Source of the DNA: Takakia lepidozioides
Lineage: Eukaryota; Plantae; Bryophyta
NCBI GenBank assembly: GCA_030704615.1
Contig: CM060733.1
Location: 70,680,001-70,744,000, forward strand
Direction: 5' to 3'
Length of the DNA: 64,000 nucleotides
The notes beneath the pieces are model-generated. The model did not search any database, was not told the DNA's origin, and saw nothing but the letters and a program-made list of their open reading frames with translations. Both the position numbers and the translations under genes were made by a program. Positions 1-60,719 of this stretch are shown piece by piece (the stretch's first letter is position 1; every line of letters begins with the position of its first letter).

Positions 1-438
1 GAATTGTGAAGTACTGCAGACTGTATTGGTGCAGACTCCATTGGTTCAATCGCGGCAAAAGGGTCAGCTTCATTCCAATGTTAAGGCATGTAAAACCGCG
101 GAATACTCTATACAGGCCAGTATGCGACGTCCTTTTGCAGTGGTATACTGGATTTCCCGTTGCACGGTCACTTATTTCCATGAGCGGATCTATAAAACCA
201 TGAGCGGACTTGTTACTGACGACATATCTTCGCCGCATTACATGATCTGGAACGTCCAAAAACGGCAAGGTCAAATAAAAAACTATTATTTTAATACTTG
301 TTTAATCTGCCGCATTTCCAAATTTGGAGGAGTCCGCTCATGAAATCCGCGTATCTTAGACTTCGGCTCACCGCTCATGCGGCTCATGCGGCTCATGGCT
401 CATGGCTCATGGTTTCTGCTCATGAAATAGTAAACCTC
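1..438. mobile_element. Terminal part of a second copy of the Mutator-like element found at 42322-56561, in inverted orientation; runs off the window
   Basis: 1-438 is a near-identical reverse complement of 42322-42759. It ends ...CATGAAATAGTAAACCTC, matching the GAGATTTACTATTTCATG terminus, and has GGCTCAT subterminal repeats. Confidence 0.9.
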
Positions 439-11775: not shown

Positions 11776-12674
11776 CACTATAGCAAATGGGGGGGGGTTT
11801 GCGACGCCAGCCGCGCCCCCACGCCCCGCGCGGCGTCGAGCGTGCGACGCCAACCCCGCGGAGCGTGTTTGCGAAGTCGGGCCGTCGCAGCCAAACCCCG
11901 GGGGAGTGAAACTTGGCGCCGGGGCCAGGCGGCGACGCCTGGCCGTCGCATAGAATGATGAAGGGAAAATGGCAGCCCTTCTGTGCGACGCCCACGTGTC
12001 GCCCCCAGCGAAGGGTAGAAGGCATCCCTTTCTGGCGACAACCGGTCGTCGCACGCCGGAAAAAAAACAAAAAAAAAACCATTTCTTGCCTTTTCTTTCA
12101 TTGCAGCCCTTTCTTGCGACGCTCGGCCGTCGCATGGTGGCATGAAGGGCAAAAGGCCCCTGTGACAGCCGGGCGTCGCAAACTGCCCGACTGCCCTATT
12201 CTTTCAAAACAAAAAAACATGTCACAGTTTGGGACGGCTGGCTGTCGCCGTTTGCGACCCCCGGCCTCATAAATCCAAGAAATCATGTCGCAGTTTGCAA
12301 CGCGTGGGGGTTGCAGGCGGCGACGACAGGGCTTTCTAGGTTTAGGGTCAGGGCCTTTGGGGGTTCTTAGTTTTTTTTTTTTTTTTTTTCATATGGTACT
12401 GGGGTAGGGTGTTTGTTTTTCTTTATGGTTTAGCTTGTTGTTGTGGACCTTCTTGTAGATTGTGACATTCATTTTGATAATTCTCTTGATACCACATCTG
12501 TATGTGTTGCTCCAACATATTCATTGCCTCTACCTTCTTTCTTGAAAGACTACCAGCCACAGCCATATTTCATGAATCATAGAAATAAAGTACAATATGC
12601 ATGTACATGTACAATCAATCGAAGGGATGGGTCCAGTTCGGTGCGAGAATTGTTATGTAGCTTTGATTTTGTGT

Positions 12675-28770: not shown

Positions 28771-29610
28771 TGAGCTTTTCAGCTCATGTCTTGTAAATAT
28801 ATTTCCGTCTTTCCATCTTCCATCTTATTCATGTGTCGCACCGTCCTCACCCTCGATTCATGCTTGCTCAATTGTGTACCTGCTAATTCAAGAAATGGAA
28901 CTGTAAGTTCTCCCCATCCCCAAATACAAAACCAGGAAAAAAAACAAAAAACCCCCCCAATTCACCCCCAAAATGAACCCCCAACCCCCCCCACCAGGCT
29001 GCCCTCACAACTGCAGCACGTCGCCAATGGCGACGTGTTTTTTAATCCGGGGTCGCAACCCGCGATGCCCCTGGCGTCGCGGAGACCGCCTCCCTGCCTG
29101 CGCCACTTTTTTTTTTAAAAAATTAAAAAAAAAAAACGCGACGCCGGAGCGTCGCAACAACCCACGCCCGAGCGTGGCGAGACCGACTCCAGCTGTTTTG
29201 TGTCCGCCCAATAGTCGCTGGCAGCGACGCACGTGCGTCGCTTGGCGTACCACCCATCCCACCCGGTTGACTCCCGGTCAGGTTAGAAAAAAAAAAGGTG
29301 ATGCGACGCCGCGCCGGCGCCCCCACCAGCGCTGTCGGCTGGAGGGCGCAATGGCGAGACGTCACTCGAAGAGGCTCCTGCCATCGGTGCGGACGGCCTG
29401 AAAAAACTGACGTCCGGCAGTCGCGAGAGTTTGGGGCGGGGCTCGCGACCCCATACATACGTCGCACTTTTGCGACGTCATTTTGGCGACGCCCTTGCGA
29501 CTGCAGGGCGACGGCCGGGCGTCGCAAATTCTGCGCCTCCCACGTGCCTGAAAAAGGGCGTTTTCCCGACGTTGCGCAGGCATCGCAAAGGCCCCCCTTT
29601 TCCTGCAGTG

Positions 29611-37647: not shown

Positions 37648-38520
37648 GGAGTTGCTATTCTATCAGCCATCAGCTATCAACCATCAACCATCAACCATCA
37701 GTATGACGTGGATGCGAGAACACTGGCCACATGGCAATCAATAATTTTTTCACGGGCTGCCCGTAAATTTGTGCTTGGATTCACTAGAGACATTAATGCA
37801 AAATGATACGGTATTGTCCCGAAACACCACCTTTGGTTACAGAAGGTGGAGACTGATCTGGAAAACAAAATATATTTCTGCGATCTACAACCTTAGCTTC
37901 TGAAAGTATAAACCTACAGTAGACATTGTCTGTTTAAAAACAAACACCATACATGTTATCAAATGATGTAGACACGCCAACACATCAAAAGGTTGACGAC
38001 AAAATTCTGGGGACACCACTTTCATTCGCCGAAGGTGGGCACAAAAAACAGAAGGTCTGGAGGTCCACAACATAATCTGGGGGAGACGACCTTCTTTTGT
38101 TGAAGGTAGGAAAAAGAATAAAAGGTCCAAGAAATAATTTGGGGACACCACCTTCGTCCGAAGAAGGTGGAAATAAAAATCAAAGATCCAATTTTTTTTT
38201 GAGGAGACTACCTTCGCCGAACGAAGATGGCCATAAAAATCAAAGATCCAAATTTGTTTTCGAATGAGACCACCTTCGTTCAACGAAGATAGGGAATAAA
38301 AGTCAAGGACCCAAAAACATTTTGATGGAAACTACCTTCGTTTAATGAAAATAGACATAAAAATCGAGGATCATAGACATTTTATACGGTGGACCACCTT
38401 CATTCGACGAAAATGGGCATAAAAATCCAAAATATTGCTCTGTGGAGACCATTTGCCGAAGGTGGGCATATAGATCAGTAGGTCTACGTCAATTTTGGGG
38501 CAGACCACCTTCGGTGAATG
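37648..38520. repeat. MULE-like terminus followed by a ~61-bp tandem array of CCACCTTC-N7-GAAGGTGG palindromes
   Basis: GGAGTTGCTATTCTATCAGCCATCAGC plus 7-bp repeats resembles the 56561 terminus. Palindrome cores at 38090, 38151, 38211, 38273, 38335 and 38397. Confidence 0.6.
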
Positions 38521-39984
38521 AGGACGTTGAAAACGTCTTCAAGAATTTATCATGGACGCCACCTCTGGTAAGAACAGGTACCTTGCATTTCTCCTCCACC
38601 CAGCTAAACCCTCTCTGTTCAGCACCTTTTTGAAACGCACAGCTAGAACTCGAAGAAGAGGCCGGGGGAGGATGTTGCAGTCACTTAGGGGAAAACGACT
38701 TAGGGAAACCATGGCAGGGTGCGAGTGGGGACGTGAAAAACAAAACCCACGCAAAGAGCTTTGATCCCATGATGTCGCGGCAAGCAGACATGGCTCTCAC
38801 CAATACGCTACATGCACACATCTGAAATTATCCTGCAAAACTATGTATATAATTTCAACGTTTTTCAGCCCCCTTATATATACATAGTCGTATGTGGGGG
38901 TATTAAATTAACCCCCTTCTTTTCACGCACGTGATAGGTACAACTGACCTTGGTGCACCCCCCATGAATTCATCCTAAACATTCATTCATCCATTTATTT
39001 ATTAATTCAAACCAATTCATCCTGATCCTCATTCATCCTAATTCATCCTAAACATTCATTCATCCTAATTCATTCATTCATTCTGTCATTCATATAACTA
39101 CAAGAAGACACTTACTCTACCATTGTGGCATAATCCACACTAGAATAAAATAAGCCAAGTAACATTTCTCACACCATGTATAGTCAGCATGCCACATCAT
39201 ATAGTTGACCCCCATTGTGTGGATTAACTTACACTATATGGCTCATTCTCACACCAGTGTGAGATAAGCCTTGTACACTGTTCGACACCTTCTCGGTCAA
39301 CAACCGTTGACCACAGAAGGTGTGAGCTTGGTGTAGACTAGTCTACACAAAACGACTTTTCTTACATTGGCTCAATCTACACCATCTAAATTTTACAGGG
39401 GTGTCAAATTTTGTGTAAGAAAAGCCAGGTGTGAACTACCCTTGATGTAAAAAAAAGCTAGGATCTCTTGTAGTGCAGGATCCACCATCTCCTCATCTTG
39501 TACTTCATTCGCCTGTAACTCTTCGGCTATCAGTATCGGAGTTAATGGGCAAATCCCGCGTCAAGTCTGCAAGGTCCAAGATATCTAAGTGCAGCTGGGT
39601 TGAGTGCAATTCACCAACCTGTGACAAAGAAACAACGGCAGACTTGGAATCATCTCCTCATCATTTTCACAGTAGCAGGCTCGGATCCACCATCTCCTCA
39701 TCATATACTTCCTTCGCCTGTAACTCTTCGGCTTGATGACTAGGAACCGTCCCCCATATAGCGGATTGTGGAGGGGCCCCATAAACAACTCCATGAATCT
39801 CACGTTGAGCATCAAAAAGGTTTTTGAATGCATTATGCACCGGAAAGGTCATGAGCTCGGACTCATCTGCTCAGAGAAAAATATATTTTAGTCATGAAAC
39901 AGGGTTCATTGACACGGGTACATTCATCGCTTCCGGTTGCACTGAATAAGGGTTACATAGGGTTACCGTTGTTTCTGTCGGGAT

Positions 39985-40625
39985 GGCGAAAGTCGGTAGC
40001 GACTATTTGCCTGTATGATGACAACAACTGAAAGATCAAAATGCAGTCGCTGCCGACTACTTCATTTCTGCGAAAATTTGAACTGTGGGGATTTTTTTTG
40101 AGGGTTGTCGGTACCGACATCTTCAAAATATAATCACATTTCCCGGCAGGACGACTAGATTGCGTCGGTATTTCTGTCTGAATCTGGAAAGTCGGCAACG
40201 ACTATTGGTAAAAACGATGACAATGACTGATGGATTGGAATGTAGTCGCTGTCAACTTCATCATTTTTGCAAAAACTTGCCCCAACAGATTGTTTCGGGG
40301 ACTTTTTTGGTGGTAGTCGGCACCGACCTTCATTTTTCCACGTGTACTGGAAACACTTTGGGATAGAATATTCGTCATTATTTCGCATAGAACGCGGATT
40401 TTTGTCAGGGCGTTGGCTTCATTTGGCGCATTCTCATAATGTAGTCGGCGCCGACTAAAATAATTTTCATATCTTATGCATAAATGTGTGGCATCAAGGG
40501 ACACAAATGTATCCTAGTCGGCACCGACTTGATGGAATTGGACAATTTAGAGGGATTTTTGGTTTTTAAAACTCACATCATCGATGATATTGGAAGTCAT
40601 TTCATTGTATGGTCAGCGCCGACCA
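39985..40625. repeat. Cluster of TAGTCGGNNCCGACTA palindromes (further copies at 42273 and 56600-56800)
   Basis: About 10 degenerate copies, e.g. TAGTCGGCGCCGACTA at about 40442. The motif continues on both sides of the MULE insertion. Confidence 0.7.
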
Positions 40626-41309
40626 AGCATAATTCGAGTTGCATTTGCAAAGAGGTAGAGTATCGCGGGGATAATTCACATCCAATTCCCAGCCTTGCAA
40701 GCAGATGTGAGGCTCCGCAACTCACTTCCTGCAAATCCAATTAGTAAATATGAAAGTGATGGATGAATGTATGTATGACGTGTAGCCCAACGATGAAAGT
40801 AGTATGGACGATGCGATGAAACTAGTATGGATGACGTTCCCTAAACCCTAGCATCGTCCATGTCTCATCTGAAATTGAAATTTGAAAGTAGTATGGATGA
40901 CGTTTCCTAAACCCTAGCATTCATTCATCGTCCATATCTCATCCAAAACTGTAATTTGAAATATTAATGGGCACATACCACGTTGGATGTGGTTGTGGGT
41001 TCAAACCACGGTCTGGTGTGTCATGAAGGTGTGGTGAAGTGACACCATAAGTTACGCTCCTTCGGGAGGCGTCATACTTTAATTTGAAATATAGTACTAG
41101 CCACGTGGCGGGAATGCAGGAAACCACATGCAGCAGGGCACGTGGCGAGGAAGCACGTTCGTAATCCTGTAGGCATTCGTTGCTGCTAACATAGGTGTCC
41201 GTTTTTCATCCCTTTTTGACTTCTCCAGTGTGTTCGGTGATCCGAATTCTCCTTTGCTGTTCCCGACTCTTCAGCTTCTTTTCCATTGTCGAAGCAGCGG
41301 AAAGCCGTT

Positions 41310-42120
41310 TTCATGGTGCACATTGAGGAAGAAGATGACAACTTCGTGCTGCCCACGCAAACACAGAAGGTTCAGCGCAATCGCACGGTCGTCTCCCAAC
41401 AAGACAGCGAGGGTGGTGGAGGTAGACCTCCAAAGAGGACTGGGAAACTTCGAAAGAAATCCATGACTTCACAGGAAGCAGGGATGGTGTCCACAGCGGC
41501 CACCATGTCCGGGGAGCGCGTTCCTATTTCCCCCATTTCAGCAAGCGGTGCCTCACCAGGTCCAGCCACAAGCGCCCAGGGAGGTGGGAGCTCGAGTCTT
41601 GCCAGTATGTTGAAAATGACATGCGCAAGCAAGCCCTGTTGTCATTGACGACAAGTGTAATGAACCACACAATGAGCTCTATTCAGCACTTGCTCAAGAA
41701 TGGGGCTCCTCCATGGATTCCATTATGCAGGATGAAGCCCCTCCCGGCTGTGTGCATGGCTGAGCGCCCTGACATCAACAAGCTCAAGCTGTACTTTGAG
41801 GCAGATAGGTACAACGATGCTCTTGCATCAATGCTGCTTTCTACCAACGCGAGTACCAACGACGACGGTGGACAGAGCTAAGAGATTGAACATGCAGATC
41901 GCGATAAATGGTCTTTACATTGGCAAGCAGCGGATGCAACATTTGAGGAGGACATAAAGAACACAGAGTGGGAATTCCTCTCAAACATTGGTTGCACATC
42001 TACAACGAGAATCACAGGTGGTATGCCTGGATGGAGGTAATCTCCGAGCAGCATCCAGACGATGCGAGCTGGCACTACCGGGTGAATGCAAAAATTATGG
42101 ATGTGAGGAGTTCAGATCCC
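41310..42120 (+). pseudogene. Decayed ParB/Srx-like gene, homolog of the MULE cargo N-terminal domain
   Basis: IPLCRMKPLPAV..DINKLK..W..HW....FE..HIYNENHRWYAW..WHYRV aligns by eye with IPLCRMVSLPIV..DVDKLK..VWDGNHRLLAW..WHYMV at 50130-50480. Confidence 0.75.
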
Positions 42121-43164
42121 GGGCTCATTTGAACGTCGTGCAATGAATTGAATGAATGTGTGAGTTGAAGTTGCATTTCTGCTCACATGAGGTTGGGTTT
42201 TATATCCACATACGAGCGTTGCATTTGTGAAAACTGCATCACAATAGCTTGCAGACCAAGGATAAACAGTCATAGTCGGGACCGACTATGACAGATTTCA
42301 TACAAGGGCAGTGCAGTGTAGGAGATTTACTATTTCATGAGCAGAAACCATGAGCCATGAGCCATGAGCCGCATGAGCCGCATGAGCGGTGAGCCGAAGT
42401 CTAAGATACGCGGATTTCATGAGCGGACTCCTCCAAATTTGGAAATGCGGCAGATTAAACAAGTATTAAAATAATAGTTTTTTATTTGACCTTGCCGTTT
42501 TTGGACGTTCCAGATCATGTAATGCGGCGAAGATATGTCGTCAGTAACAAGTCCGCTCATGGTTTTTTAGATCCGCTCATGGAAATAAGTGACCGTGCAA
42601 CGGGAAATCCAGTATACCACTGCAAAAGGACGTCGCATACTGGCCTGTATAGAGTATTCCGCGGTTTTACATGCCTTAACATTGGAATGAAGCTGACCCT
42701 TTTGCCGCGATTGAACCAATGGAGTCTGCACCAATACAGTCTGCAGTACTTCACAATTCTGTCTTCTTCGGGTATTCGGCGGGAAAGGTTTGCAACTGAA
42801 CTGGGAAATAGGGTGCCGCATTAGGGTTCGCACGTGCGAAATTTCGGAGCGGTTTGGTGTTGGCGAAGGCCGCCTCTGGGGTACCTACGACGATACTTGG
42901 AAATTCGGCGCCGCATTTCCTTGTCGGAGGTCGAATGAGGAAAGCAAGTTTTCGGAAAGCAGAAAAACATGAACCCTCCAACATACAAAAACATGCACAA
43001 CAAGTGAACGATATAGTAATATCTTAGTTCGAGCAAAACAGGTTACTGGTAGGCAAGACATATGTCGGACCTTTCTGTGGCCAGAGTCTGAGGTACTGGC
43101 AGCAGTACAGTTCTACTATCCGAAAAGGATGGGCGTACCATTGTATGTGGACCGCAAGCCAAGC

Positions 43165-46100
43165 TCACTGGTCCCCTGGATCCATATTCAGAAGAGTGTG
43201 AACCTCCTGGGGGCTCAACCCTGGTGCATGTATGAAGTGATGAGTTGTGGAATTACAACGGAGTCTCTTTAGGTACACGTAGTACAAATGCTTGCAAGGG
43301 CAGTATGATGCCCCCTTGTTCGCCATGATCTGGAAGTCGGTGCAATTGCAGGTGGGTAATTCTGAAATGGTGATGGTGTACACCTCATTGCGAACAGCTG
43401 AGCCCGCCGTGGCCATCTGATACACACGCCCGAATCCTGGTGGGGGCACTTCTGTCGAGCTCTGGATTGTACAGTTCATCCGAAGTGCATTCCCCATCCT
43501 TGTCTCGTTCACTTTGAGGGAGGTCGCCGCCTCTTCGGTTTCCCCCAACGGTGTGTAGGATGCTTAGAGCTGTCGTGTCCCATTGTTCTTGCTCTCACAG
43601 GGGTCGGTGGTGGAGGCTGTGGAAGCGGAAATGGTTGTCTGGGGACGTCAGTGCGCTGCACCATCCGAAATCCTGCGGCGGTAAGGGCGTCGGCCTCAAC
43701 CTGACTCAGATCGCAGCCTGGTTCCACCGGCCACACCGGGGGAGCCTCTGGCATTGTTTGTATGCCGTACTTGGGCTTTCCATACACGCAAGTCATAATG
43801 TCGTGCCTGCAGAACCAGAACTGGGTGGTTGTCGCCTCCGCAAACTTTGCATGGACAAATCTTCCTGTAAAAGTAGGAGCAGGGACAGCCCCATCTGGAT
43901 TCCTCCTTATCATCTCTAAACAACGTTGGTGTATCCACACGAATTGCGGAACACCTTCCTCGAAACGACGGCTTTGTGCGAGCAATTCTCCACTGTGAGG
44001 CAGACACAGTCGTCTCCACAATGGCTTGGCCATACTGCATAACAGCGGGCGGAAGGGGCAAGGGAGCGGTGGGAATTTGTTGCACGAAATCCCGGTTGAA
44101 GGCGACGGCGATCTGGAATTTCTTGGGCTTCCACTGCTGGAAGACACATTGTGCGGCAACATGACGGGACCTCGAGGTGCTGTCCGAATGTTCCTGTCGG
44201 ATCTCCAGGAATCCTCTTCGCACCCGGGTTCCTCTTCAATCCTCCGCCTGACAGGGCGAGTCCGGACGTCCCCCTCTAGGTGTTCACCTCTGCGGTGCAG
44301 AGGCGTCCCTTTGATCTTCTCTCGCAATGCTGTCGCCCATTTCACTGGATTCTTGGACCTCGAAGCTGTTCGTACCAACAATTCCTCCCTGTCCGGCCCA
44401 AAGCCCCATTGTTTGCCGCTCAGGAACTTGTAGTACGTGGCTTGCTGCATGATTGCTCTGTCGATGTCCTCCGTTGTGGCCGTCACTACGTCCACCAGAT
44501 GTGCGGCAGAAGACGCTCGCCAGGAGGAGTGGACCGATTCTGCCATATTCGTGTTCGGCATGTCCGTGTCGGAATCCAAGCACCGCTCCTAGAAGGACAC
44601 AAACAATGGTGAGGGACCAATCGAAATGTCCGTACAGAAAGACAAATGAACGAAATTGACAGCAGCCTACCTCCCGCATGTACTGTCCGAACTGTCGATA
44701 CCGAAAATGCCACACCCCCAACCAGCTGTGCAATGCTCCCAGATTGGTTGTCTCCACTGCACCTGACGTGTTCCACCAAGCCTCGATGATAGCAAACTTA
44801 ACCTCCGCGTCATCAAATGTGGGTGCATCCTTCCACGCCGTACAAAGGACACGGTGTTCAGCCTGGAATGAGCTAGCAACAAATTTGGTAGTGTAGTGGG
44901 ATAGACTCTGCATCCAATGGAATCCACAGGATCTCTCTTTCCCCTCCATTGGAACATTGGGGTCCTCACCGTACACACGCCGCACCGCTGCCCAGTTGGC
45001 CTGAGCGTTGTCTGCCATGAATCCCCTGAAATTGGGCTCTGGCAATCCCGCCCTTGCCATCTGCTCGTTTATGCCCTCCCACAGATGCATCTCGGACTGT
45101 GTGTCCTCCCCTTTCATCTCGCAGATTGCAATCGTCATGAGCCTCTTGGAGTGATAGTCATAAACATGCGCACCCATAGTCACCCACTGATGGTTTGTAA
45201 TTCGCTTGATGTGATCAAACATCACCCCAAGCATTCGACAAGTTTCCAGTTGTCATGCGAGTGACCAAGTCGACTCCACTCCCAGGCCCACACGTCGACA
45301 TTTTGAAAATGTAACAACGATCGGATTCGCTGCCTTGCCCTGGAAACCTGCTACCTTGGATGTAGTCATATCCAGTCATTCGTTTCACCTCCAGGATTGA
45401 GTACATGTCCGACCCCCTGCCGAACTCCTGCTTGCAAGATACGATGTGATTCCGCACATTCGGACTACAAACGTGCGAGACGGACTCCAAGAGGTCACGC
45501 ATCTCGTCTTCGGTCAAGGGCTCTCGGTCGGAACCATCTTCAGACATGATTTTGCCAAGAGCAATCTTGTGGGCTGCCTTCAGCTGAATCTGCTTTGGTC
45601 TGGCTCCGGGGCTCAATTTCTCCTCTTTTATGATGTCGTGTGCTTCCTGCACAGCCTCACGCATGTTGCCTCTCGCCAAGGGGTGGCAGTGGACCCCAAC
45701 GTGTATGCAAGCTCTAGTCAAGTCCGGGAGCAAATGGATTACGTAATATTGCTTGGCTCTGCACATGGACATGCACGTCGGTGGTTCTTTGCAATGTGCA
45801 CACTTGAAAGAACCCGCAGGAGCTTGGCTGGAGACAATGAATGGATGATGCGTTGTGCCAGTCCAATCCGTCTCGTTTCTCCCCCTCCTTTGGAGAGAAA
45901 GTGGAAGCAGGTGGGATTGAGGCACCTCAGCTTCCCCGCACAGAGGACATATCGTACACGAACACCATCAGCAATTTTCGTGCTACTGGTCTTCGTCACA
46001 CACCAGGGGTGTCCGTCATGCTTTCGATCCATGTCTGTTAACATCCCGGAGGCTTTGTTTGAAGAAACAGGTGGAAACTCGAAGATGACATTGCCATCGA

Positions 46101-46757
46101 CTTCGGGAGGCAGAAAAGTTACCTTTCTGACTGGGAATTTGGCATAGTCGAGAGCAGCCAGCTCGGAGCGAGAACCATCGAGGTGATGTTGTCGTAGGAG
46201 CTGCACAATGGACCGGGTTGGAGTTATGCTCGAGGGCACATGCGTAGCACCTACAGAGACGTCCATGCCGGATTTGAACGACCGTGTGGAGGACATGGGT
46301 ACCTCAATGCAATCATCTTCCTCGTCGGAAATGTCGAATACGTCCACACGAGAAGCTATGGAGGGTCTTGACGGTCCAGGTCGGGAATGATTATCGTTGC
46401 ATACCTCTCTGTTGGCAGTGGCCGCCTCTCGGTTTCCGGACTCCTTTGTGGATGGTGTGGGCAGCGACTGATTCGGAAAGGGAATGGGCATTCCCACAGC
46501 TCGGTACAGGATGGTGTCTGAGGGGGAACGTGCCATTCGATTCCGCAACCTCCGTCGTTACCTAGCACGACAATGGTCTCGTCAACCTGTCCAGGAACAT
46601 CCTTCCTTTCTTCTTCCAAATAAACTGTGCCCGGTTTGAGCTTGAATTTGGAACAAAGGTAAGTTTCAGTCACTCTGCAAAGTCCTCCCTCGTTTGGGAT
46701 CCAGGCTCTCCCAAGTTGCGGAGGACAGCAAACTATAGCGTAGGAATTCGGAGCCAT
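43165..46757 (-). CDS. MULE transposase: GCM/WRKY-like Zn domain, DDE core and SWIM finger (contains 1-bp indels)
   Basis: Motifs DGHPW..CAGKLRC.NPTC..CAHC..HVGVHCHP, MFDH, FMADNAQAN, CGFHW, TNMAESVH and SWIM CNC..CKH. GT-AG intron at 44589-44670. Confidence 0.85.
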
Positions 46758-47183
46758 CGAACACCGCACGGAGTTGGCAAGTGCGAGGTTCAGTATAGCG
46801 ACAGACCAAGGCTCACAGGCACCATCTAAGTGGATCTGCGGAGTCCATCGACGATTGGAAGTCGCACATTGAAGTGGAAAGTATTGTTTCAAGCTACATG
46901 CATGAAGGTGGGAGGTTTGATTCCATAGCCAGTGAGTAGGACAATGATGGCCGATTCGGCGACGAAATAACATCTCCTGACAGTTTCTCCTGAGGGTGGA
47001 TCCAGCAGTATTCTCGGTGCAGACAGGAACGTTCGCACTGACAAGTGCCAGGACTGCTGGTTAAAACGGTCAGACAACCAAGTTGTGCTCATCAAGACTG
47101 GCCGCAATTGTGTTGTTTCGGAACAATGCAACCCATTGAGGTTCCAGATTTCCCGTCCCGAGTGATTCTTCGATTGCTGGTGG

Positions 47184-48780
47184 ACGGAAATACGGCGCCG
47201 CATTTCCGTATTGCATCTTGGTCATGCACCAGAGCGACGGAAATGCGGCACCGAGTTTCCGTCGGGGGAAACCTTTATACTCTCCAGAACGGAAATGCGG
47301 TAACGCATTTCCATCCAGCAAGCACGGTATGTGAAGGTGGAACGGAAATGCGGTACCGCATTTCCGTTCTGATTGAGATTTATGAACAACGGGAACAGAA
47401 ATGCGGCACCGCATTTCCGTCCGAGTCGCACTTTGACATTCCAGAACGGAAATGCGGCGCCGCATTTCCATTTTGTATCTGATGCATGGAGCTGAGGGAT
47501 AGAAATGCTGCAGCACATTTCCGTCCTTAAAAGACACTCTGAACGGAAATGCGGTACCGCATTTCCGTTCTGATTGAGAATTATGAACAACGGGAACAGA
47601 AATGCGGCACCGCATTTCCGTCAGTCGCACTTTTCGACATTCCATAAAGGAAATGCGGCGCCGCATTTCCATTTGTATCTGATGCCTGGAGCCCGACAGC
47701 TTCATACAGCGCAATTCCGACCGATCCAGAACGGAAATTTTCCGTTCTGACTGAAATCGTGGAACTGAAATGCGGCAATTTCCATCCGAGTCGTCCAGAA
47801 CGGAAATGCGGCACCGCATTTTCCGCGTAAACCCTTCGTGAACCATCGGAACTGAAATGCGGCCGCGAGTCGCACCTACCACATTCCAGAACGGAAATGC
47901 GGTACCGCATTTCCGTTCTGACTGAAAATCGTTGAAATGCATTTCCATCCGAGTCGCACCTCCCAACATTCCAGAACGGAATGTATTAGATTTAAAAGGG
48001 AAATGCGGCACCGCATTTCCGTTCTGATGAAATATCCTGAAACATCGGAATTGAAATGCGGTACCGCATTTCCGTCGGAGTCCCACCATCCGACATTCCA
48101 AAACGGAAATGCGGCACCGCATTTCCGTTTTGTATGTGAGGCATGGAGCTGTGGAACGAAAATGCGGGGCATTTCCGCCAGCGTCAGACGTTAATACTCT
48201 ACAGAACGGAAATGCGGTACCGCATTTCCATTCTGACTGAAAATCGTGCGCAACGGGTACAGAAATGCGGCACCGCATTTCCGTTCGAGTCGCACCTTCC
48301 GACATTCTCGAACGGAAATGCGGCGCCGCATTCCGTTTTGTATATTCGGCCTGGAGCTGTGCTACGGAAATGTGTTGCCGCATTTCCATCCATGTGAGAC
48401 CTTCAAACTTTCCAGACCGGAAATGCGACACCGCATTTCTGTCCAGGTGAGACCTCTATACTTTCCCGAACGGAAATGTGGCACGCATTTCCATTCATCA
48501 ACGGAAATGCGGCGCCGCATTTCCCTTCTGAATCTCATACATGGAGCTGTGGGACGGAAATGCGGCACCGTATTTCCGTTCAACAACTAAGGTATGTGAA
48601 GGTGGAACGGAAATGCGGTGCCGCATTTTCTTCCAACAAGTACGGATGTGTAGCTTCGTGTGGTACTTAACGGAAATGCGGCGCCGCATTCGCATTTCGC
48701 TCCAACTCATCAGACGCTGGGACGGAAATGCCTTGAAATGTGAACACGTGGAGCAACGGAATTGCTGCACATGTCGGCAC
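47184..48780. repeat. Array of about 30 palindromes (AC)GGAAATGCGGNNCCGCATTTCC(GT) with ~53-bp period
   Basis: Copies start at 47186, 47239, 47291, 47344, 47397, 47448, 47501 ... 48208, 48261, 48314, 48366, 48419, 48472, 48503, 48556, 48609, 48672 and 48724. Confidence 0.95.
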
Positions 48781-49122
48781 TCTATCTGACGGGGGGCATG
48801 AGGCGGCGCGGCCTGACCGTTGGATAATGATGTTTGTTTTTCGGACGGCAGGCGTACCCTCAACGATTCGAATTTCGTAATGACGCAAACTCCACGAGGA
48901 GACACTTTCGTCCAACCTTTCGAACCCAAGTGGTGCATCACCGCCGTTTCATCTACTTTTGTCGTGTCTCCTCAGTCCCCCTCTCGCGCCCTTTCCATCT
49001 GCACTCTTTGCCCCTTTTCCCTCTCTCTGTTCTTCTTATGCTCGAACCTGAGGGGGGGAGTTCGTGCACCAGACAGGAGACCTCGTCGCAAGCTCCGGAA
49101 ATTATACTTCGGACGTAGGCCA

Positions 49123-52100
49123 ATGCCGAAGGGGAGGAAGCAGATGCGTCTACAGGAGGAGATTGCCATCTCCGAGCAGCAGGCCACTCAGGCAACCCAG
49201 CCACCAGTGAGAGCTCCATGCGATCGGGCTGCGCGCAGCTGATCGAGCACCGAACCCCCCATTTTGCTTCTGTAATTCTTAGACTGAATGCTAGGAGACT
49301 TGAATGCAGAACATGTTTGCATGCCTAACAGGAAAGGTGGACGTGCTGGAGGGATCGCAGGAATCCGAAGAGCCGCAGGAAGAGTCCGAGGAGCTAGCTG
49401 CAGCACGTACACCCACCCGATCCCCGAGCGCGGGTATTCCTGCCGGGCCTAGCCCTCTGCGATTCAAAGACGCGTCTTCGAAGGGCAAGTTCAAAGTCCC
49501 AGAGATCGACTCGCGTTCTTCGATCATGGAGAATCGCCAGCAGGGGTCGGGCCCTTCTCCAGCAAAGTCGAAGAAGAAGCAGCCCGTCCCTCTACTGGCT
49601 TCTGAACCGGCTCAGGCCGATTCACCCCCCCAACGCGAATGAAGCAGCAGGGTAGAAGACAGATTCTATTGCAGCAGACACCTTCACCTGCAAGGATGAG
49701 GAAGCAGAAGGCAATCAGGGCGACGGGCGAACAATCTCCCGCAAAACCGCTTCCACGAGCTGAAGCTCAGTTCCTGGAGGATTTCCCGCCTGCAGATGTT
49801 GGGGCCGACTCTGCTGCAGCGAAGGCAATGGGATCGACCGTTGATCTCGATTTGGTACCGGAGGAGGGTGCTGCCGCTGAACGTTCGCAGCAAGACCTCA
49901 CCACCGATGAGCTAGCAGGCCCGGAGGAGGCCTCTGCAATGGCAGAATTGCCCGCACACAGGCCCCAGAGTGCAGCTCCAGTTGAGGATGCTCCAGCTGC
50001 TCAGCCACTACCGGCACCTACAGACATGTCTCCGGAGGATTTCAAAAGTGCAGCGGATAAAATGTTGGAGGAGACACACAGTAGCATTGGCAGAGTTCTG
50101 GGCAGCAGGGTATTCCAGCGGACTCTTCGAATCCCACTCTGTCGCATGGTCTCCCTTCCCATCGTCAGGCAGGCCCTTCCCGGAGATGTGGATAAGCTCA
50201 AGTTCGCATTTCGAGAAGGGTACCGTCTGGGATCGGCAGCGTTTTACGTTTCCATGAGAATGAGGACGGCGAAACCGTGGACCCACTGCCGATGAATTGT
50301 CAACGTGGGATACCCACTGGCACACTCGCAACACGAATTCGAGGCGACGCTGAAGGGTGATCCCGACTTCGGCCATATGTCGGGTAAAATGTTCTTTGTG
50401 TGGGACGGAATCACCGACTTCTCGCCTGGTGTACATCAAGCAGAACCATGCCAAGCACATTGGCTGGCATTACATGGTGGAGTGTGTCATCCTCAAGGTG
50501 AAGGCGGCAGACTCCTCCCTGCTCAAGAATGCCATGGCGGACCTCAACTCGTAAGATACTCATACCCTCCCTAGCACGTTCGAAATGCGGTGCCGCATTT
50601 CGGTTTCCATTCTGGTTTGTTTCCGTGCTTCCGTGTACTGAACTGGAGAGTGTGCCTTGCAGGGTCACTGAGAATGCGTACGTGCATACCCACATGGCAC
50701 ATATGCTGTACAGGGTGAGAAAACTGGTCACTGATCCGCAGATGTTTGCGGAAATGCTGGAGCCGAGCTCATTCAGAAAGCCGTTGCAAAAACAGACCGG
50801 ACATGGTATCGTCTCACTATGGATGGAATGGTGGAGGTGATATACGAAGTAAGTCGTGCTCCAATTTCCCTCTGCTCATCCTTCCCCAATTTCCAGTAAT
50901 GTTTCCACATGAATCGAATGTAACGCTTCTGCATGTTTTTGTTGGCAGTCAAACATCAAGCTGGATTTGGCCCATGCCAAACGCTTCTTCATGGAAAGTG
51001 AGGGGCAGGTCAAAACGTTGCAGTCATTGACTGAGCACTTGAAGGAAGCCGGTGTCAAGTCCAGAACCAAATACAAGTCAAAGCTTGTGAAGCTGGTGGC
51101 AATTGCAGATCCGGCACTTGGAAAGGACTTCATCCCCGAGATTGCAAAACACTATTCTCGGGCCATGCAGCCGACCATGCAATTGGAGAAACTGCATCAC
51201 CTCTCAACGGCATGTGTGGAGGCGAAAGAGAAGGTGAGGTTTCAATGCACTGAAGTTCCTTCCTAGCAATAGCCACTCTCTTCCAGCCCTGACATTGGAT
51301 CGGAAATGGCAGACACGGTGGCTGTCGATCTGGAATGCATCCGAGAGCATAAGGACAATGTGGTCTTTTCCACTGGAAGTTTCCGACCCTGCAGTGGATG
51401 TGTGGCTCAACCGTATGACTTGGTGGTTCCAGGTAATTCAAGGTACTTCCCCAGATTTGCTTTCTGACATGAATTCCCTGAACTGCTACGTGACAATGCA
51501 TTTGGGAATCGCAGGTAATGTCGAATGCGAAGGAGCAAGTCGTAATGCACACAAATTCGTTCGGCTTGTACGTCAAATGGGATGGAACACAGACATTGGA
51601 AGACTACGTGACACGTTTCAGATGTGCGTACAAGGACAACCTTTTCGCCAGAGAGCTACAGACAGCAAGAAGGAGCGTGGAGTTTACACATCAGGAGGGA
51701 GCGGGGAAAGCTGCAATGCGAATTGTTTACAGGTGAAGCACAGCTGCCCTTGTATGCGAAGCCTGGTTACGAGGTTTGTCTCGGAAATGCGGCACCGCAT
51801 TCGCATTTTATGTTTTCGGTGGCACTCTGCCAGTAGGTTGGTCTCAACTTTTGCTCACGCATGCTGACTGCCTTGCAGGTATATGAAATACGTGCTCCTT
51901 CAGACAGGGGCCCTGGCTCAAGAGCCCCCGTTCTTCATGGCTTGGACCGTGGCGGGCCCAAGCTGTGTCTACACACCCGAGATGCAGAAACAATGGCATC
52001 CCGCGCATCTCGTTGGATGCCCGTGGTACCTGGACATGTCTGGCGGTATTGTTGACGAGTCTGAGAAAGATCTGCACGCCTTGGCAGAAGAGAAGAGAAA

Positions 52101-54228
52101 GGAAAGACGTGTCCCTGCTGGGCCAAAGTCGGCAAAGGAATCTGCTGCTCTGGAAGAATCCAGAAAGGCAGCTGAGATGGCACAAAAGACGGTGGATGCA
52201 GCTGTGCAGGCCAACAGAAGGGGTCGAAGAAGAGGACTCGCCAGCAAGGAGCAGCTGTTGTGACACCCGCCAAAACGAAGAAGCAGAAACAGCCTGTTCA
52301 GGAAGAGGGTGAGGAAGAGGACTCCGATGGAGACTTTGCAACCAGCCCACCCCCCCAAACGCAGGCTGCCTCCCCTGTGCCCACCGTTGTCACGAGAGGC
52401 ACGAGAACTGGCTCGGCAAAGAAGGCACTCTTCAACCCCCCAGGGGGGCACCCTTTCGAGCCGGTGGAAATGAAGAGGCCGAAAGTGGCTCCCGAAACAG
52501 TAGTCCAGTGTGTAAATGAGAGTTTCTTGGCGGCTTTGGATGGACGGGCAGCCAAGTTGGCATACATGAAGACCATGGAGGGTCTGAAGGGCAGAGCACT
52601 GAAGAAGGCGACTGCCGAAGAGCCTTCCGACACCCCAGGATTTCAGAATATGGTCTCGTTCTTTGAGAGGGTGTGTGCAGACAAGGATTGTAGGAGGGGC
52701 GGAAATGCCACCGAGTGGTCTTGCGATATGATCATCTTGGATATTCCGGACGGAGAGCCTGTGGAAGGACTGCAAGCTTTGCCATCTTGGAACAGGTACT
52801 CGGAGGACTTTTGGAAGAAAGGATTCGGGCTTGCCCGCATGGTGTTGGACGACAGAGGCTGTGTGGTTGTCCTGGCGAGCAGAGGAAAAAAAACACTCAG
52901 ACAGGAATTGCGAAGTGGACCCGCAAGAGCGCCGTCCCGATTCTGAAAAAGAAGTGGACGTGTGCATCAACACACTGGGCCTTCGGTCGGAAGGGAAGAA
53001 GGTGATTACGACACTGGCACTCGTCCATTCATTTGCTTGGGTGTTTCAAATGCGGTGCCGCATTCGGTTTCTAATCGTTTTCCCCCTGTGTATGCAGACG
53101 AAGCAGTTCGATGCATACTGCTTTGTGAAGGAAAACTCCACCTTTGCTTTCCGGAAGGAGGGAGGAAAGGTTGACCCGAACTGCGACCCACTCGATTACG
53201 ACGTTCTGTTCAACAACGTTCCCAAGGAACTTCTCCCTCATAGCCTCACTTCAACGGAACCCCTGCGGTACTCACGGACTCGGAGCCCTGCCTTCATTCA
53301 GACAATTATGGAGACATGCACAGACGTGGAGGGCACAGTGCTCGACCTCATCTGTGGGACAGGTATGCAGAATCTTGATCTCTGCTGTTCTGCAAATTCT
53401 CGTTAGGATGTAGTTCGCAACATCTGAAGCGCCATGTGGTAATGTGTGGATGGCATTGTAACAGGTGCCTCAATGTGGGCTGGGCGGTTTTCCGACCGGC
53501 ACCTCTTTGCCTACGAGGAGGCATCCGTGTGGGGATCCCATCTGGAGGGGCTGCAACGGAATGTGAAGGCTCCCGACAGAGCGGAAGTCTCCTCGGATTC
53601 GTCGGAGTCCGAGGAAGACACAGTGGACATTGATGAGGAGAACCCGGAATACGAGTGAGTGCAAACATTGTAAGTTTGCAAAGCCTTCTGGGTCATTTAT
53701 GTCAAACGAATTTCCCGACTGTGGTTCTCATTAGTCTCGTTGATGATTGTCATGTGCAGGATTGCAGGGTCCGGGTCGAAACATGTAGGGCCTACACTTC
53801 CTGCCAGGAAGAATGTCCCGTTCTTTGCGAGGGCCGACTTCATGACGAGCCCGGTGAGGGACTACTCCCTTCCTAGTTATGCAGCTAAACTCGCAAATAC
53901 AGCGATTAGAAGAAGTGAGAATCCCAGTAAAGTAGAGCAGATTTTGGAGAGGGCTAGGGAGGACAGAAGGATAAGGAAAGAGTTGGCAGCAGCTCAGACA
54001 GGTAGACGGGTACGAAAGTACATATGTGATTCAGCGGATGAGAGCGACGCAGACAGGGAGGAAGACGACCCAACGGAGGTGAGATGGACAGTTCCGCAAG
54101 GGGAAGATGGGATTTTCGAAAGCCTGGCCAACGAGCAGTCCGCTGGAGATGAGAGAGGCACTGAGGGGGTGGAGGAGGAGCAGGACAGTCTAGAACAGGA
54201 TGAGGATTCGGATGATTTTCAAGATTAA
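49123..54228 (+). CDS. Spliced cargo gene: ParB/Srx-like domain plus beta-class N4C/N6A DNA methyltransferase-like domain (contains 1-bp indels)
   Basis: VWDGNHRLLAW (restored by +1 A at about 50410), CDMIILDIPDG (motif IV), LARMVLDDRG and VLDLICGTG|ASMWAGRFSDRHLFAYE (motif I across intron 53363-53464). Other in-frame introns at 50551-50662 and 53655-53759. Confidence 0.8.
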
Positions 54229-54416
54229 TAGAATTTTAATGAAGTCTCTGTAAATGTAAATTCTCTTCCAGAGTATATAAAGAAAATTCTGCCCGACATT
54301 CGTGACCCCTCTCCAGTGTGCATTCCAGCCACACAATCGCCCAAACCACGACGCTCCCAAAATCAGAAATGGGTCAGGGCATTTCCAAAATTTTGGCAAC
54401 TCTAAGAACCTCTTTT

Positions 54417-54930
54417 GGAAATGCGGCACCGCATTTCCAAAACAGGGGAGGGACTAATTTTCCATTTCAATGTTGGCATAGTAAAAAGTAATCTGAATTG
54501 GGAATGCGGTGCCGCATTTCCAAATTGCATTCCATTGTAAAAAAAAGTCGATGACGGACATGGAAATGCGGCGCCGCATTTCCAGAACGGGACATCGCAA
54601 TTTGTCCATTTGCAGACCCTCTCTCGGAAATGCGGTAACGCATTCCATCGCGCTGGTCGGAAATAGGTGCACTTTTCGAAGTGTTGGACGGAAATGCGGC
54701 ACCGCATTCCCTTGTCCAAAAAGAAGTTTCCATTGCCAAGCTGGAAATGCGTCGCCGCATTTGCAATGCCAACCTCGTTTCTGATCAATTTATAGACCCG
54801 TGTTGGTATTTCGTGTACCTGGACGGAATGATGCACCGCACATGCCCGCTTTCCGACATGGAAATGCATTTCGCGACATGGAAATGCGGCGCCGCATTTC
54901 CGACATGGAAATGCGGTGCCGCATTTCAAT
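54417..54930. repeat. Second cluster of the GGAAATGCGGNNCCGCATTTCC palindrome, downstream of the cargo gene
   Basis: About 9-10 copies, e.g. at 54417, 54501, 54562, 54690, 54880 and 54907. Confidence 0.9.
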
Positions 54931-55249
54931 GTCCGACATGGCGTTACTCTGGTATATTCTTGACACATGACTCACATACCGGTTACTGCTTTATTCAACC
55001 AGACAGACAATTGTAGAAATGAGACATCAAATTGTAAACAGTGGGCCAATCCGAGAGTTATTCAACACAATGAAACACAGTCATACAGAAGTGAGGTACA
55101 TTCCAGGGCACACTCCAGGGCACATTTAAATTTCCCCCGTACAGGATCCTGGACCGATGAAGATTGGCTGCTGCATGAATGTAGCCGTTTCAGTTTCCTA
55201 CCCTGCCATGCAAACTATGGGCAGTCACTGCCAGGTGGGCCGATAGCCA

Positions 55250-56098
55250 CTGGACACGACGAAGTCCATCCCCTCTTCGATGTAAATGCGGCGCCGAATT
55301 TCCATCCGGGGGGATGGACTTCGGTGGCAGATCTCAAACTATAACTTGTTGATGAGAAAGATGTATGGTTCATCCACCGCTGGCGTGATGAACACGTTCC
55401 ACCTCCGTCGGTGGGTACGTGTGACCCAGATGCTCCATTTTGGAGGCCGGACTGCTCTTCCGCTTCGTATCTTTTCCAAAATCTAAGGGCTTCGTAGCTG
55501 TCCGCAAGGTCATCGGCATCCAAGTCGTCCTCAGGTCCTCCTTTGCAAGGATGCCGTGCTTCCGGAACCGGGACGACTGCCCCTTTGGAGGCATCGATTA
55601 TGCAATGTATTCGGCCACATCGGGAGACATTGTTATCTGGTACACAGATTACACAGAAGATACTGGTTCGATTGTGGAAACATTGGTGGCTTTTGAGTAT
55701 ATCGTAGGCCACTACGCCTCGAGCGGGGTGACGATCTTGGTCTGAGGAGTCCGTGGCGCGATTCCGATTTTCCCAGCTACGACGGTCACCCATGCAGAAG
55801 AAGGCGCACTGCTATGCTGCGGTGGAACTGCTGCCACTGGACGTGGGTGGACTCCATCGGAGAGACCTATTCTCCTCGAGGAGTGCGCTCCTCTTCTCCA
55901 TTGTATGGGGACATTCGCATTGGTGTGGACGACGAAAACGTGAAGATTTCCATATTCGATGGTGGTATGATTGAAGGGCAGGACATTGTGGTGAACATCA
56001 CTAGGGGCGGTACAACGGCTGCAATCGACTTTACATGGAGGAGCCCCATGACTCATGAGCTAGTTCTGAGAGCAGTCGAAGTCCCATTGACAACGTGA
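55250..56098 (+). pseudogene. Putative third ORF of the MULE, unknown function, frameshifted
   Basis: Successive protein-like frames (55440-55745, 55753-55860, 55814-56098) ending in TGA at 56098; no motif recognised. Confidence 0.35.
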
Positions 56099-57397
56099 CT
56101 TGTATTCAGTAGGCACAGGGCTCAAGATTTGATGGCACAATCAGCACAGTAGACGTGCTTCAAATGCAATTCATGTGGATCAATAAAAACCTCATTGTGC
56201 CCTCTTTTTATTCTATTCTGTGTCCATCGTTCCGAGAATGCGTCATTGCTCATTTCGTTTGGGATTGGGAGTGTGGGTGGATTTTGCAAATGGCTGGTAG
56301 GCTGAAATGGGCCCCCATTGTACAGAGCAGTACCACCCTACCATTCGCGAAACATTGCCTTTCAATATATAATTCTAAATAACATTGCCGAACCTCCTTC
56401 ATCGGGAGGTCCTTCTCCCCCTATGACCGTGGCACCCTAAACCCTATTCCCGCGGACACTCATTTCCGGAAAATAGTGCTGCTCATGTTTTTTTCCACAC
56501 TTACGACTCTGCTCATGGCTCATGCCGCTCATGGCTCATGGCTCATGAAATAGCAGCCCCCCAGTGTAGCATCCCTTTTAACCTAACAGTAAACACCTGT
56601 TATAGTCGGAACTGACTATAACAGTTCCCCAGTCAGTAGTACTCCCAGCATTCTTGTTTTAGGCCCTAGGTATACCAATTGATATAGTCGGAGCCAACTA
56701 TAGCAGTTTGCAGTTTGCAGATGTGTATCTTGACTGACTGATATGCCTTATTCGTTTCCCCGGGTTTTGGTATGAGCAGTTATAGTCGGAGCCGACTGTA
56801 ATTACACGTTCGTAGTCTTCTTCCAAACCTCTAGTACATTCCCAGATACTAATCAGTGAGCGAATCAGTAGTAGTGCCAGGTGAGAATGTTGAATTTCTC
56901 TTCACCTGTTCATAGGATAGGGCGTGTGCGGATTTTATCTCGTCAATGAATATTATGCAAATTCCTCCAATTTCCCTTTTTATTTTGGAGGGGGCCCAAA
57001 AATTGGGCCCACACTCAACGTTGGCGTTTCTGTGATTTTTGCCTGATTGGCCTCAAAATTGCCAGGTGTCTACGAGGGGTATGTACGAGCACAATGTCCG
57101 GTCAATTTTCCCAATTTTTTTTTTTTGCCAAGATATGTGTATTTTTCTAAGCTGGGGTCAACATTTTTCATAAAGCCCTTGTTGCAGGACTTTATTAGGG
57201 CCCGAGGGCGTGGGAATCTTGATTCGCGTAAAGCCCGAGTTATAGGACTTTAACTCACGTAAAACTGCATAAACTACCTGCCTATATGCCCGCAATCTGA
57301 GATTAGGGGCCCAACCCATGGGCTCCATGGCGTAACAGGACAAGCGGGATTTTATGCTATTTAAAGCCCACCAAAACTACACTAACTAGGTTTTTAC

Positions 57398-58818: not shown

Positions 58819-60267
58819 ATGGGTGTAAGGAGGACTTTGTTGTTGTTGTTGGCTGTTTGCCTTGTTTCCAGCCTCGTCTACGCGAGTGAGACTGTGGGTG
58901 AGACTGTAAGTGAGAAAGTGCAGGAGGGTGGGGATGTTACCAAGGAACAAGTAGAACAAGCACAAAAAACCGCTACAGACACCGCTACTGGGGTCAAGGA
59001 GGGTGCCAAGTCATGGGGTGAATGGACCACTGAAAAGCTTCAAGATCAACTGCATGTCATAACTGATGCCGTGACTGGGTGAGCTTTCATTACCTCTCAT
59101 ATAATGTATGCTGACGGTTGTCTGTGATTGCATTCACTCCGCTGCTTTGATCCTGTAAATTCTGCTTTCCTCTAGCGTGCATATCGGTTCTTGTCTCCAT
59201 GGGTTGGGGGAAACAGTCGATTTCTTTGTTTGAGGTGTTTCTTGGTCGATGGCTTGCAGGAAAGCTAGTGACCATTATGCAAGTGCAAAGGAAACTGCTG
59301 GACAGAAGGCAGAGAAAGGAAAGCAGGCTACACATGATATGACGAAACAGGCGTCTGACCGAGCTGCCAGTGCCAAGGACAAGGTTACTGAAACTGCCTC
59401 AGGTACCTAGATTGTTACTTTCAAGATCGAACTCAGATTTACAGATCTGTCACATGACAGTTTGTGATCAATCGATTGCATAATTTTAAAATTTGCAGCA
59501 TTCATGTATCATTGTCTTTCTGAACTCCCCAAGGGACCTATTTGAGGATGGATACTGCAGACACAGTGGGAAGAGTGTGTACATATACATGAGTAAGCTC
59601 GGGCAGTAACGATTGCTAGCTTTATGTGAAGTTATGTGTAATTCCTGATATTAGTTGGATAAAATTCTTTCTCGAGGACACTCTGATTTGTTCGTTTCAG
59701 TCAAAAATCATAGTCATGACGAAGTAGCCCGGATGTTTCACAGTTGCTCGAGATGGCTCGAAAACCTAAGTGGGTTGGATTTCTTGTTGCAGTATATTGG
59801 AAGAGCTTATACTCCCGCATCCAACTTATCCAAGATAGTCTTGTCAAATTCACAAAAGGTAGATAGCTTCGTCGAATTTGAACAATACTATGTATCTTCA
59901 TATGTGCCAAGAGAAATAATGCTCCTCCTATTGTACGTAATTCGTTTCCCCAACTAAGCGGGACGGGTGTTTATCATCAGCGATGTGTATTTTGTATTTT
60001 GATCAAAGCTATTGGTTGATATGTGTAGATGCGTCTGCGACTGGAAAGGACAAGACGTTGGAGACAGCTCAGAGCATCAAGGACAAGGCACAAAGCGCTT
60101 ACGATGCAGCTGCTGGAACAGCACAAGAGACAGTGCAGGGTAGCAAGCAGAAGTTGGGTGAAAATTATGAAACTGCTAAGAATGTTGTGGGTGAAACAGC
60201 AGAAGTAGCTCAAAAGAAAGTTGCTGATATTGGGGAGGAATTGAAGAAAAGTCACGAAGAATTGTAA
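58819..60267 (+). CDS. Late embryogenesis abundant (group 3-like) protein with signal peptide and ER-retention signal HEEL
   Basis: Exons 58819-59078, 59260-59402 and 60029-60267 join in frame via GT-AG introns. Hydrophobic N-terminus, A/T/K/E-rich repeats, SWGEWTTEKL motif and C-terminal HEEL. Confidence 0.88.
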
Positions 60268-60719
60268 ATGGATTTTGCAACACTCAAGACGCGTTGGTTC
60301 ATGATGGTTTAACTACAGTGTACGCGTTCCTCATTACTTTCTGAGACGATGTATGTGCATTGTAGGTAAAATAAGTACATAAAAGATTGAAAAGTGTTTC
60401 GACTGCTAATGGCCAACAGAATCTGTAGAGAAAAGGCAGAGCTTACAATGTGAGATGACCCCACCACCTTCGCATTCTTGGGTGTCCTTCTGATCAATTT
60501 AAACATTTTGCTTAAGTTCAATTCCTCACACTAAAGAATTTTAGTTCCTAATTTTTCGTCACTGTCTCCGTCACTAACGCAACTTTCGCCTCACATCATG
60601 CATAGGACCTTTCAACACCTTTGTACACTACTCCGTCCCCACAGTCCTGGTTAATGAATACTTCCGACGTTTCTCCTCCTTGTAGCTCAGATTACCTGAA
60701 CGTACGTCACCTAGCACCT

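Follow-up and report, generated by a model that had tools for sequence, protein, structure and literature searches.

The transposon and its genes

We analysed 64,000 nt of the genome of the bryophyte Takakia lepidozioides (assembly GCA_030704615.1, contig CM060733.1, positions 70,680,001 to 70,744,000, forward strand), and all coordinates below refer to this window. It contains a DNA transposon of 14,240 nt (42322..56561, no strand assigned) with two divergent genes: a transposase gene, predicted to be of the Mutator DDE type, on the minus strand (43165..46752) and a second gene, here called the cargo gene, on the plus strand (49038..54228). The transposon also contains 39 copies of a 22-nt palindrome, GGAAATGCGG-YR-CCGCATTTCC. 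The placement and possible role of this palindrome are the subject of the present analysis.

The ends and flanks of the transposon were read from the sequence. An 8-bp target-site duplication, CAGTGTAG, lies on either side (42314..42321 and 56562..56569, plus strand), a length inside the range of 8-11 bp published for Mutator-like elements (MULEs; PMC6446971). The terminal inverted repeats are short and imperfect, with CTATTTCATGAGC equally far from both ends, which also agrees with a MULE. CATGAGC is a subterminal repeat of the transposon and is distinct from the palindrome. Contigs from two sequencing runs (X4 and X9) end at 56561, and a loose end from a third (X7) starts at 56562.

The assembly has many small indels, which were corrected by short-read contigs, and the short-read contigs of other runs (X4 and X6-X12 among them) were compared with it. 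Those of low depth that stand under other organism labels may contain co-sampled DNA; X9 and X11 were taken as RNA by guess only. The left end of a second family copy is located at 1..437 on the minus strand, about 42 kb off, in opposite orientation and with a different flank. It is 99.5% identical over 437 nt, and an end this similar at such a distance suggests recent local transposition of the family. The family varies in structure in its right part: different sequence follows 55099 in other copies, and opposite-strand joints (55099-55989 and 55110-55819) were observed in other copies from X4.

The transposase gene was recognised by homologues and alignment and has one predicted intron (44589-44670). 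Its start is approximate and it is frameshifted in the assembly, several indels being fixed by short-read contigs. Seven homologues were found (E 2e-56 to 8e-38, 39-49% identity). A Cys/His finger lies ahead of the catalytic core and the C-terminal end is SWIM-like, the SWIM match (E 0.019) falling short of the cut-off. The alignment shows a D, D, CxxH, E pattern, which would fit a DDE enzyme of the Mutator/IS256 type. No Pfam MULE profile matched the transposase, and a fold search with a poor structure model (predicted local distance difference test, pLDDT, 41) gave the IS256-family ISCth4 at E 0.26 or worse.

Distribution of the palindrome

All 39 copies score at least 10 bits with a weight matrix trained on the 24 copies of the central array alone, the threshold being set at 10 bits. 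The central array (47186..48693) lies between the divergent transposase and cargo genes, with its copies mostly 51-53 nt apart. Nine more copies form a cluster after the stop codon of the cargo gene (54365..54928; spacings 52, 83, 62, 64, 64, 53, 137 and 27 nt), in which the copy at 54365 is worn and the spacers are unrelated to those of the array. Two copies are found in the left non-coding end, a worn one at 42804..42825 (12.9 bits) and one at 42899..42920 (34.9 bits), 95 nt or 9.05 helical turns apart. A single perfect half-site is present nearby on the plus strand (42441..42450) and also at 310-319 in the sister end. One copy (55282..55303, 28.4 bits) is located in the structurally variable zone 55110-56260 and is bridged by contigs from X8 and X10. 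Open frames run across this copy on either strand. Each of the six frames scores negative for coding in this stretch (best -0.09, versus -0.04 to 0.24 for 14 known exon pieces), and the copy is probably non-coding.

The remaining three copies are single ones in predicted introns of the cargo gene: at 50581..50602 in intron 2 (50551-50662; 30.3 bits, bridged by X7 and X8 contigs), at 51783..51804 in intron 6 (51733-51878; 31.0 bits, bridged by an X7 contig and covered by X4, X8 and X12 contigs) and at 53046..53067 in intron 7 (53002-53097; one base short, 16.2 bits ungapped, bridged by X4 and X6 contigs). The bridging contigs show that the intronic copies are present in other samples of the family and are family features, not assembly artefacts. 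A contig from X11 joins unrelated sequence to the element at 53049, within the intron 7 palindrome, which marks a possible rearrangement breakpoint. The complete list of sites given in the first-pass annotation was recovered, with the intron 7 copy shifted from 53048 to 53046 and the cluster, which corresponds to 54417-54928, extended by the worn copy at 54365.

Introns 2, 6 and 7 were predicted from GT..AG ends and frame continuity, whereas splice joints were seen only for introns 4 and 5, which are joined in the RNA-guessed run X9 and both lack a palindrome. The density of common variants in predicted introns (11 in 822 nt) is about 3.7 times that in exons (11 in 3,007 nt). In the assembly intron 7 is an open in-frame stretch of 96 nt; three runs have an extra T at 53043, which lengthens it to 97 nt and breaks the frame. 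Six of the nine cargo introns hold no copy.

The weight-matrix scan found no copy in 7,749 nt of exons, as had been claimed, and none in the 49,270 nt of the window outside the transposon, where the best score is below 0. Matches with up to five mismatches number 39, against 0.17 in Markov-resampled windows. The three genic copies are all intronic, and introns make up 11.7% of the genic DNA (P 0.0016). Absence from exons proves nothing by itself, because it is expected for any 22-nt insertion under coding constraint and does not discriminate between selection and passive seeding. Two candidate extra sites, a near-match in an exon at about 52703 and a half-site at 50750, were rejected because they are not above background. 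Prokaryote and viral collections, scanned for exact matches to the motif, gave none, which is uninformative on plants.

Constraint and helical phasing

Array copies are 92% identical in their arms, whereas 16 spacers are on average 49% identical (40% when shuffled). The two central bases are always CA, CG, TG or TA, that is, CpG or its deamination products. At the central CpG 35 of 78 sites are derived, versus 2 of 156 at the arm CpGs, and the non-array copies alone give 11 of 30 at the centre versus 0 of 60 in the arms (P 1e-6, a value that is too small since the copies share ancestry). The central variation could also stem from a requirement for a flexible YR step. Once 4 copies with indels are set aside, the other 35 show 38 one-sided arm changes and 1 compensatory change, so it is the sequence, not a hairpin, that is conserved.

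The spacings outside the array, those of the 3' cluster and the 95 nt at the left end, fit a period of 10.5 nt (mean cosine 0.69, n=9, P 0.001; P 0.03 when the test is collapsed to 11 spacing classes), and a scan of periods over 9-12 nt had its maximum at 10.5. Nine joints in other family copies, namely those for which the intervening letters were given, have spacings of 32, 33, 53, 63 and 116 nt, each within 0.15 turn of a whole number. None of the 40 common variants listed, from a total of 63, falls inside a palindrome (P 0.022 for the right non-coding region).

The contrast between arms and spacers, the retained arm CpGs and the helical phasing argue for a putative binding site under selection, and point to a dimeric protein that would bind cooperatively on one face of the helix. 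The selection proposed in the first-pass annotation is thus upheld for the motif as a putative protein-binding site; for the intronic copies in particular it is not significant.

The predicted cargo protein

The cargo gene, read by three-frame translation, has 10 predicted exons. A ParB-like region at about 50050-50550 contains DG-NHRLLA across a one-base frame break, and would correspond to the GxxRxxA motif of the ParB CTPases, which form sliding clamps (PMC11229316). It is followed by a middle region and then by DIPD and LDLICGTG, in the order of a permuted amino-methyltransferase fold. The Atlas lead to N6_N4_Mtase (PF01555 clusters) is weak and sub-threshold (0.85-0.86).

The catalytic motif of amino-methyltransferases is (D/N/S)PP(Y/F/W) (PMC8885841). 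DIPD lacks the aromatic residue of DPPY or SPPY, and the motif of an active enzyme is therefore absent. This is no assembly error: over 52459-52795 the assembly and an X6 contig agree, with 0 differences and 0 gaps. Catalysis is doubtful because DIPD stands in place of the aromatic-bearing motif, and the putative methyltransferase fold is likely to be a binding or scaffold module rather than an active writer. Protein searches with pieces of the cargo gave no match, and a metagenome locus (L001) was rejected as a spurious fungal hit.

A second family with its own palindrome

The transposon is inserted into an older element (39991..42321, continuing at 56570-56800, plus strand), which has a palindrome of its own, AGTCGG-NN-CCGACT. 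Nine copies lie at 39991-40624, one at 42274 and three at 56604-56797. At no more than one mismatch there are 10 copies in 2,753 nt versus 0 in 60,790 nt elsewhere, and the spacings are loosely phased (P 0.02). A decayed ParB-like remnant at about 41316-42130 is homologous to the cargo (alignment score 129 versus a maximum of 55 in 2,000 shuffles; tblastx E 1e-4) and retains NHRxxAW. When only the second half of each ParB-like region was compared, BLASTP gave no alignment, and Smith-Waterman with shuffles gave 59 versus a maximum of 41. The older palindrome lies both upstream and downstream of the remnant, and a CGG-NN-CCG core is common to the palindromes of both families.

Placement and origin of the intronic copies

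Of the 84 possible triples, that of introns 2, 6 and 7 is spaced most evenly, both by the standard deviation of the gaps and by mean distance, and it is among the top 5 by largest gap. With the intronic copies, the largest distance to a site over the cargo gene falls from 2,846 to 954 nt. The first-pass annotation had proposed tiling of the whole element. This does not hold: a gap of 4,287 nt covers the transposase gene, the intron of which has no copy, and tiling is limited to the cargo gene.

Passive tandem expansion, which had been dismissed from the start, is not borne out either, as ungapped tests reveal no significant similarity between the 12-nt flanks of the isolated copies and those of other copies (P 0.12-0.64). 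A gapped view reveals a short flank common to the copies of introns 2 and 7, and the copy of intron 6 has a right-arm variant in common with the last array copy (48672). This common flank and arm variant indicate that the intronic copies arrived by copying. They probably came by copying of DNA, through template switching or conversion during repair, about 18 of 20 bases matching.

A possible function in anti-silencing

We tentatively read the palindrome as a parS-like loading site for the element's own cargo dimer, serving spreading, intronic relays and anti-silencing, a possibility that we hold open rather than call probable. The cargo dimer would recognise the 22-nt palindrome and load at the helically phased array and at the 3' cluster, whereupon a clamp dependent on cytidine triphosphate (CTP) would spread along the DNA. 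With a spreading clamp, sites in some introns would be enough to cover the cargo gene; the three intronic copies would be kept as relay sites, one each 1.2-1.9 kb across it, and insertions of the palindrome into exons would be purged. The net output would be resistance to host silencing, by analogy with VANC of the Arabidopsis VANDAL elements, with plant transposase activators and with the bacterial protein VirB. We infer that the cargo is the binder, that it clamps and spreads, that selection acts on the intronic copies themselves and that the output is anti-silencing. The window itself presents the distribution of the palindrome, the constraint on its sequence, its phasing, and a second family with a ParB-like remnant and a different palindrome.

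Several observations weigh against this reading. On the side of the protein, the GxxRxxA-type match depends on a one-base frame correction at about 50410, and both labels, ParB and methyltransferase, come from visual reading of motifs together with one sub-threshold lead from Atlas. For neither label did Pfam, PHROGs, NCBIfam, PDB or two protein searches with the cargo give support, the pieces used in profile searches being short and frameshifted. The structure model of the cargo is poor (pLDDT 47), as is that of the transposase (pLDDT 41), and fold searches returned nothing at E <=0.001; no DNA-recognition domain was found in the cargo. As for the sites, the transposase gene and its intron contain no copy within the gap of 4,287 nt that spans them, the evenness test is post hoc and has three points only, and with the transposase intron included the observed choice of introns ranks 32 of 120 over the whole element. 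Spacings of 27, 44, 91 and 153 nt are exceptions to the phasing. Contigs break at the palindrome, which hides variants there, only 40 of the 63 variants were listed, and for the intronic copies variant avoidance lacks significance (P 0.65 and 0.52). The intronic copies are carried on near-identical contigs, from which deep conservation does not follow. Finally, it follows from the decay at the central CpG that the sites have carried methylation during some of their past, and any protection would have been incomplete.

It may also be that the array and the 3' cluster are functional and that the intronic copies are passive strays from gap repair after excision, which survived where no frame was broken; we consider this unlikely. 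Coding constraint alone would explain the absence from exons, and the six empty cargo introns and the empty transposase intron are as expected for strays, as are the signs of copying in the flank common to introns 2 and 7 and in the arm variant common to intron 6 and 48672. Wear is heavier in the intronic copies (16-31 bits) than in most array copies (up to 40 bits), and the X11 contig switches to unrelated sequence inside one of them. Strays would not, however, be expected to be so evenly spaced (1 of 84) or to have retained all arm CpGs, and past a few bases no source copy is related to their flanks, which means that the motif has persisted longer than the sequence around it. The six listed variants of introns 2 and 6 all fall outside the motif, which is not significant.

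If the cargo does bind the palindrome, it might do so as a repressor, in negative autoregulation of cargo and transposase, or to help pair the ends for transposition. The array between two divergent genes would suit such a role, as would the extra sites in the cargo gene and their absence from the transposase gene, and the decay of the central CpG shows past DNA methylation. Spreading of ParB and KorB silences neighbouring genes. We nevertheless regard repression or end pairing as improbable, since the tested eukaryotic precedents of like layout activate (VANC, PMC5735166; TnpA and the AtMu1 transposase, 10.64898/2026.08.24.746577) and VirB is an anti-silencer (PMC10653881). The binder could instead be the transposase, activating its own family by way of the N-terminal Cys/His finger with no role of the cargo in recognition, which is about as improbable. 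The ends of the transposon carry CATGAGC rather than the palindrome, and a search for a GCM domain in the transposase, with Pfam on 4 homologues and with PDB using a 7-sequence profile, gave no match, the structure model (pLDDT 41) being too poor to use. In favour of this reading, the Cys/His spacing of the finger is like that of a GCM domain. The half-site contains ATGCGG, which nearly equals the Gcm motif ATGCGGG (PMC4701085), MULE transposases with WRKY-GCM1 domains are known (PMC1702500), and the AtMu1 transposase brings about activation and hypomethylation of the family it belongs to (10.64898/2026.08.24.746577). AtMu1 binds at termini, however, and published inverted-repeat arrays accompany ParB cargo under another superfamily, Plavaka (10.1101/2025.02.11.637652). 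That the palindrome acts as an RNA or single-stranded DNA hairpin, or is kept by hairpin-driven self-correction, with no protein partner, is very improbable. In its favour, the inverted repeat is perfect and pre-mRNA would contain three of the copies, but 38 one-sided changes stand against 1 compensatory change, the loop would have 2 nt, the phasing is at the helical period of DNA, and Rfam gave no match in 42000-57000.

Comparison with known systems

The layout resembles that of the VANDAL elements of Arabidopsis and their VANC proteins (PMC5735166, PMC10398659), which are likewise Mutator-type elements with an accessory gene and a family-specific motif in introns, intergenic and terminal non-coding DNA, related families having other motifs. 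Here, too, the motifs are gathered in introns and other non-coding DNA. VANC motifs are non-palindromes of 8-9 nt that form tandem repeats inside introns (PMC5735166), whereas the introns studied here have single 22-nt palindromes, with no tandem repeat called there, and the arrays are helically phased. VANC proteins carry DUF1985/DUF287, whereas the cargo, searched as short frameshifted pieces, matched no Pfam family and looks ParB- and methyltransferase-like. Binding and demethylation have been demonstrated for VANC, while the present system is known from its sequence. The comparison with VANC made in the first-pass annotation therefore stands as an analogy in layout; no VANC homologue was found and the type of motif differs. 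The cargo system would work like VANC but is not a member of it, having no VANC domain, a long palindrome and single intronic copies.

The pairing of a ParB cargo with a palindrome array is not new, as it has been published for red algae. In the Plavaka transposons of Bostrychia, PAG3 is a ParB-like accessory protein with inverted-repeat tandem arrays beside its gene, and has been proposed to bind and modify its own element (10.1101/2025.02.11.637652). An inverted-repeat array likewise lies beside the accessory gene here, with 24 copies upstream and 9 downstream. PAG3 differs in that it belongs to a red alga and an EnSpm/Plavaka transposase, with ParB fused to a 2OG oxygenase and the methylase on a separate gene, and the passages drawn on here make no mention of intronic copies, phasing or a CpG contrast. 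The accessory protein of Sola1-1_Ec32 in Ectocarpus unites ParB-like and N4C/N6A methyltransferase parts, and its gene and that of the transposase are on opposite strands (PMC12477816). It differs in its Sola transposase and its brown algal host, and the string 'palindrom' is absent from the main text; the cargo here has DIPD. Fusions of a helix-turn-helix of ParB type with a methylase have also been listed for chlorophytes and chytrids (PMC4738411). No land-plant case of a ParB cargo with a palindrome array was among the papers listed in the literature searches.

The palindromic site, the putative GxxRxxA-type motif and the proposed load-and-spread logic would be shared with bacterial ParB-parS and with VirB of Shigella (PMC11229316, PMC10653881), the latter a CTP-binding anti-silencer of the ParB family (PMC10653881). 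The cargo differs from these in having no ParA and no identified helix-turn-helix, in that it would act within eukaryotic chromatin and in that its CTP binding is putative. A wider speculation, which we consider doubtful, is that a land-plant lineage rebuilt the bacterial ParB-parS clamp for self-recognition and anti-silencing independently of VANC, each family having its own palindrome around CGG-NN-CCG.

The spreading of the VANC effect over many kb from short motifs has been called enigmatic (PMC10398659), and a ParB-type clamp, if true, would be a concrete and testable mechanism of spreading. With its putative relay copies, the 22-bp site lends itself to assays and might be turned into a tool for sequence-specific epigenome editing. 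Whereas the algal papers argued from proximity, the phasing and the CpG contrast provide evidence for protein binding from sequence.

Other features of the window

A transposase gene of eukaryotic type, with an intron, that is related to the one described here was found on a 4.1-kb contig of a cyanobacterial genome bin (L002:17-3550), where it is probably contamination. The contig has neither a cargo region nor a palindrome array. A viral scan with the transposase profile gave no match.

On the minus strand of the transposon, 55100-56260 is a possible remnant of a third gene, rich in Cys. Its coding signal is weak and confined to 55425-55650, and an extra base after 55439, present in about half of the X6 depth, would stop the long frame. 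A match of P0001 to the frame at 55380-55811 was rejected as a spurious DUF11-repeat hit.

Other palindrome arrays are present elsewhere in the window. A third array at 38006-38541 comprises about 8 imperfect palindromes of the ACCACCTTCG...GAAGGTGG type, 60-62 nt or about six helical turns apart. Arrays of an inverted GCGAC/GTCGC motif, 64-66 nt apart, occur in two related elements (11969-12330 and 26190-26355), with a further cluster of similar palindromes at 29017-29478, and dispersed copies of a palindrome of the TTCATCCA...TGGATGAA type are found at 10505, 22495 and 23863. A host gene at 58820-60270 looks intact and has a signal-peptide-like start and repeats, which we presume to be like those of LEA proteins.

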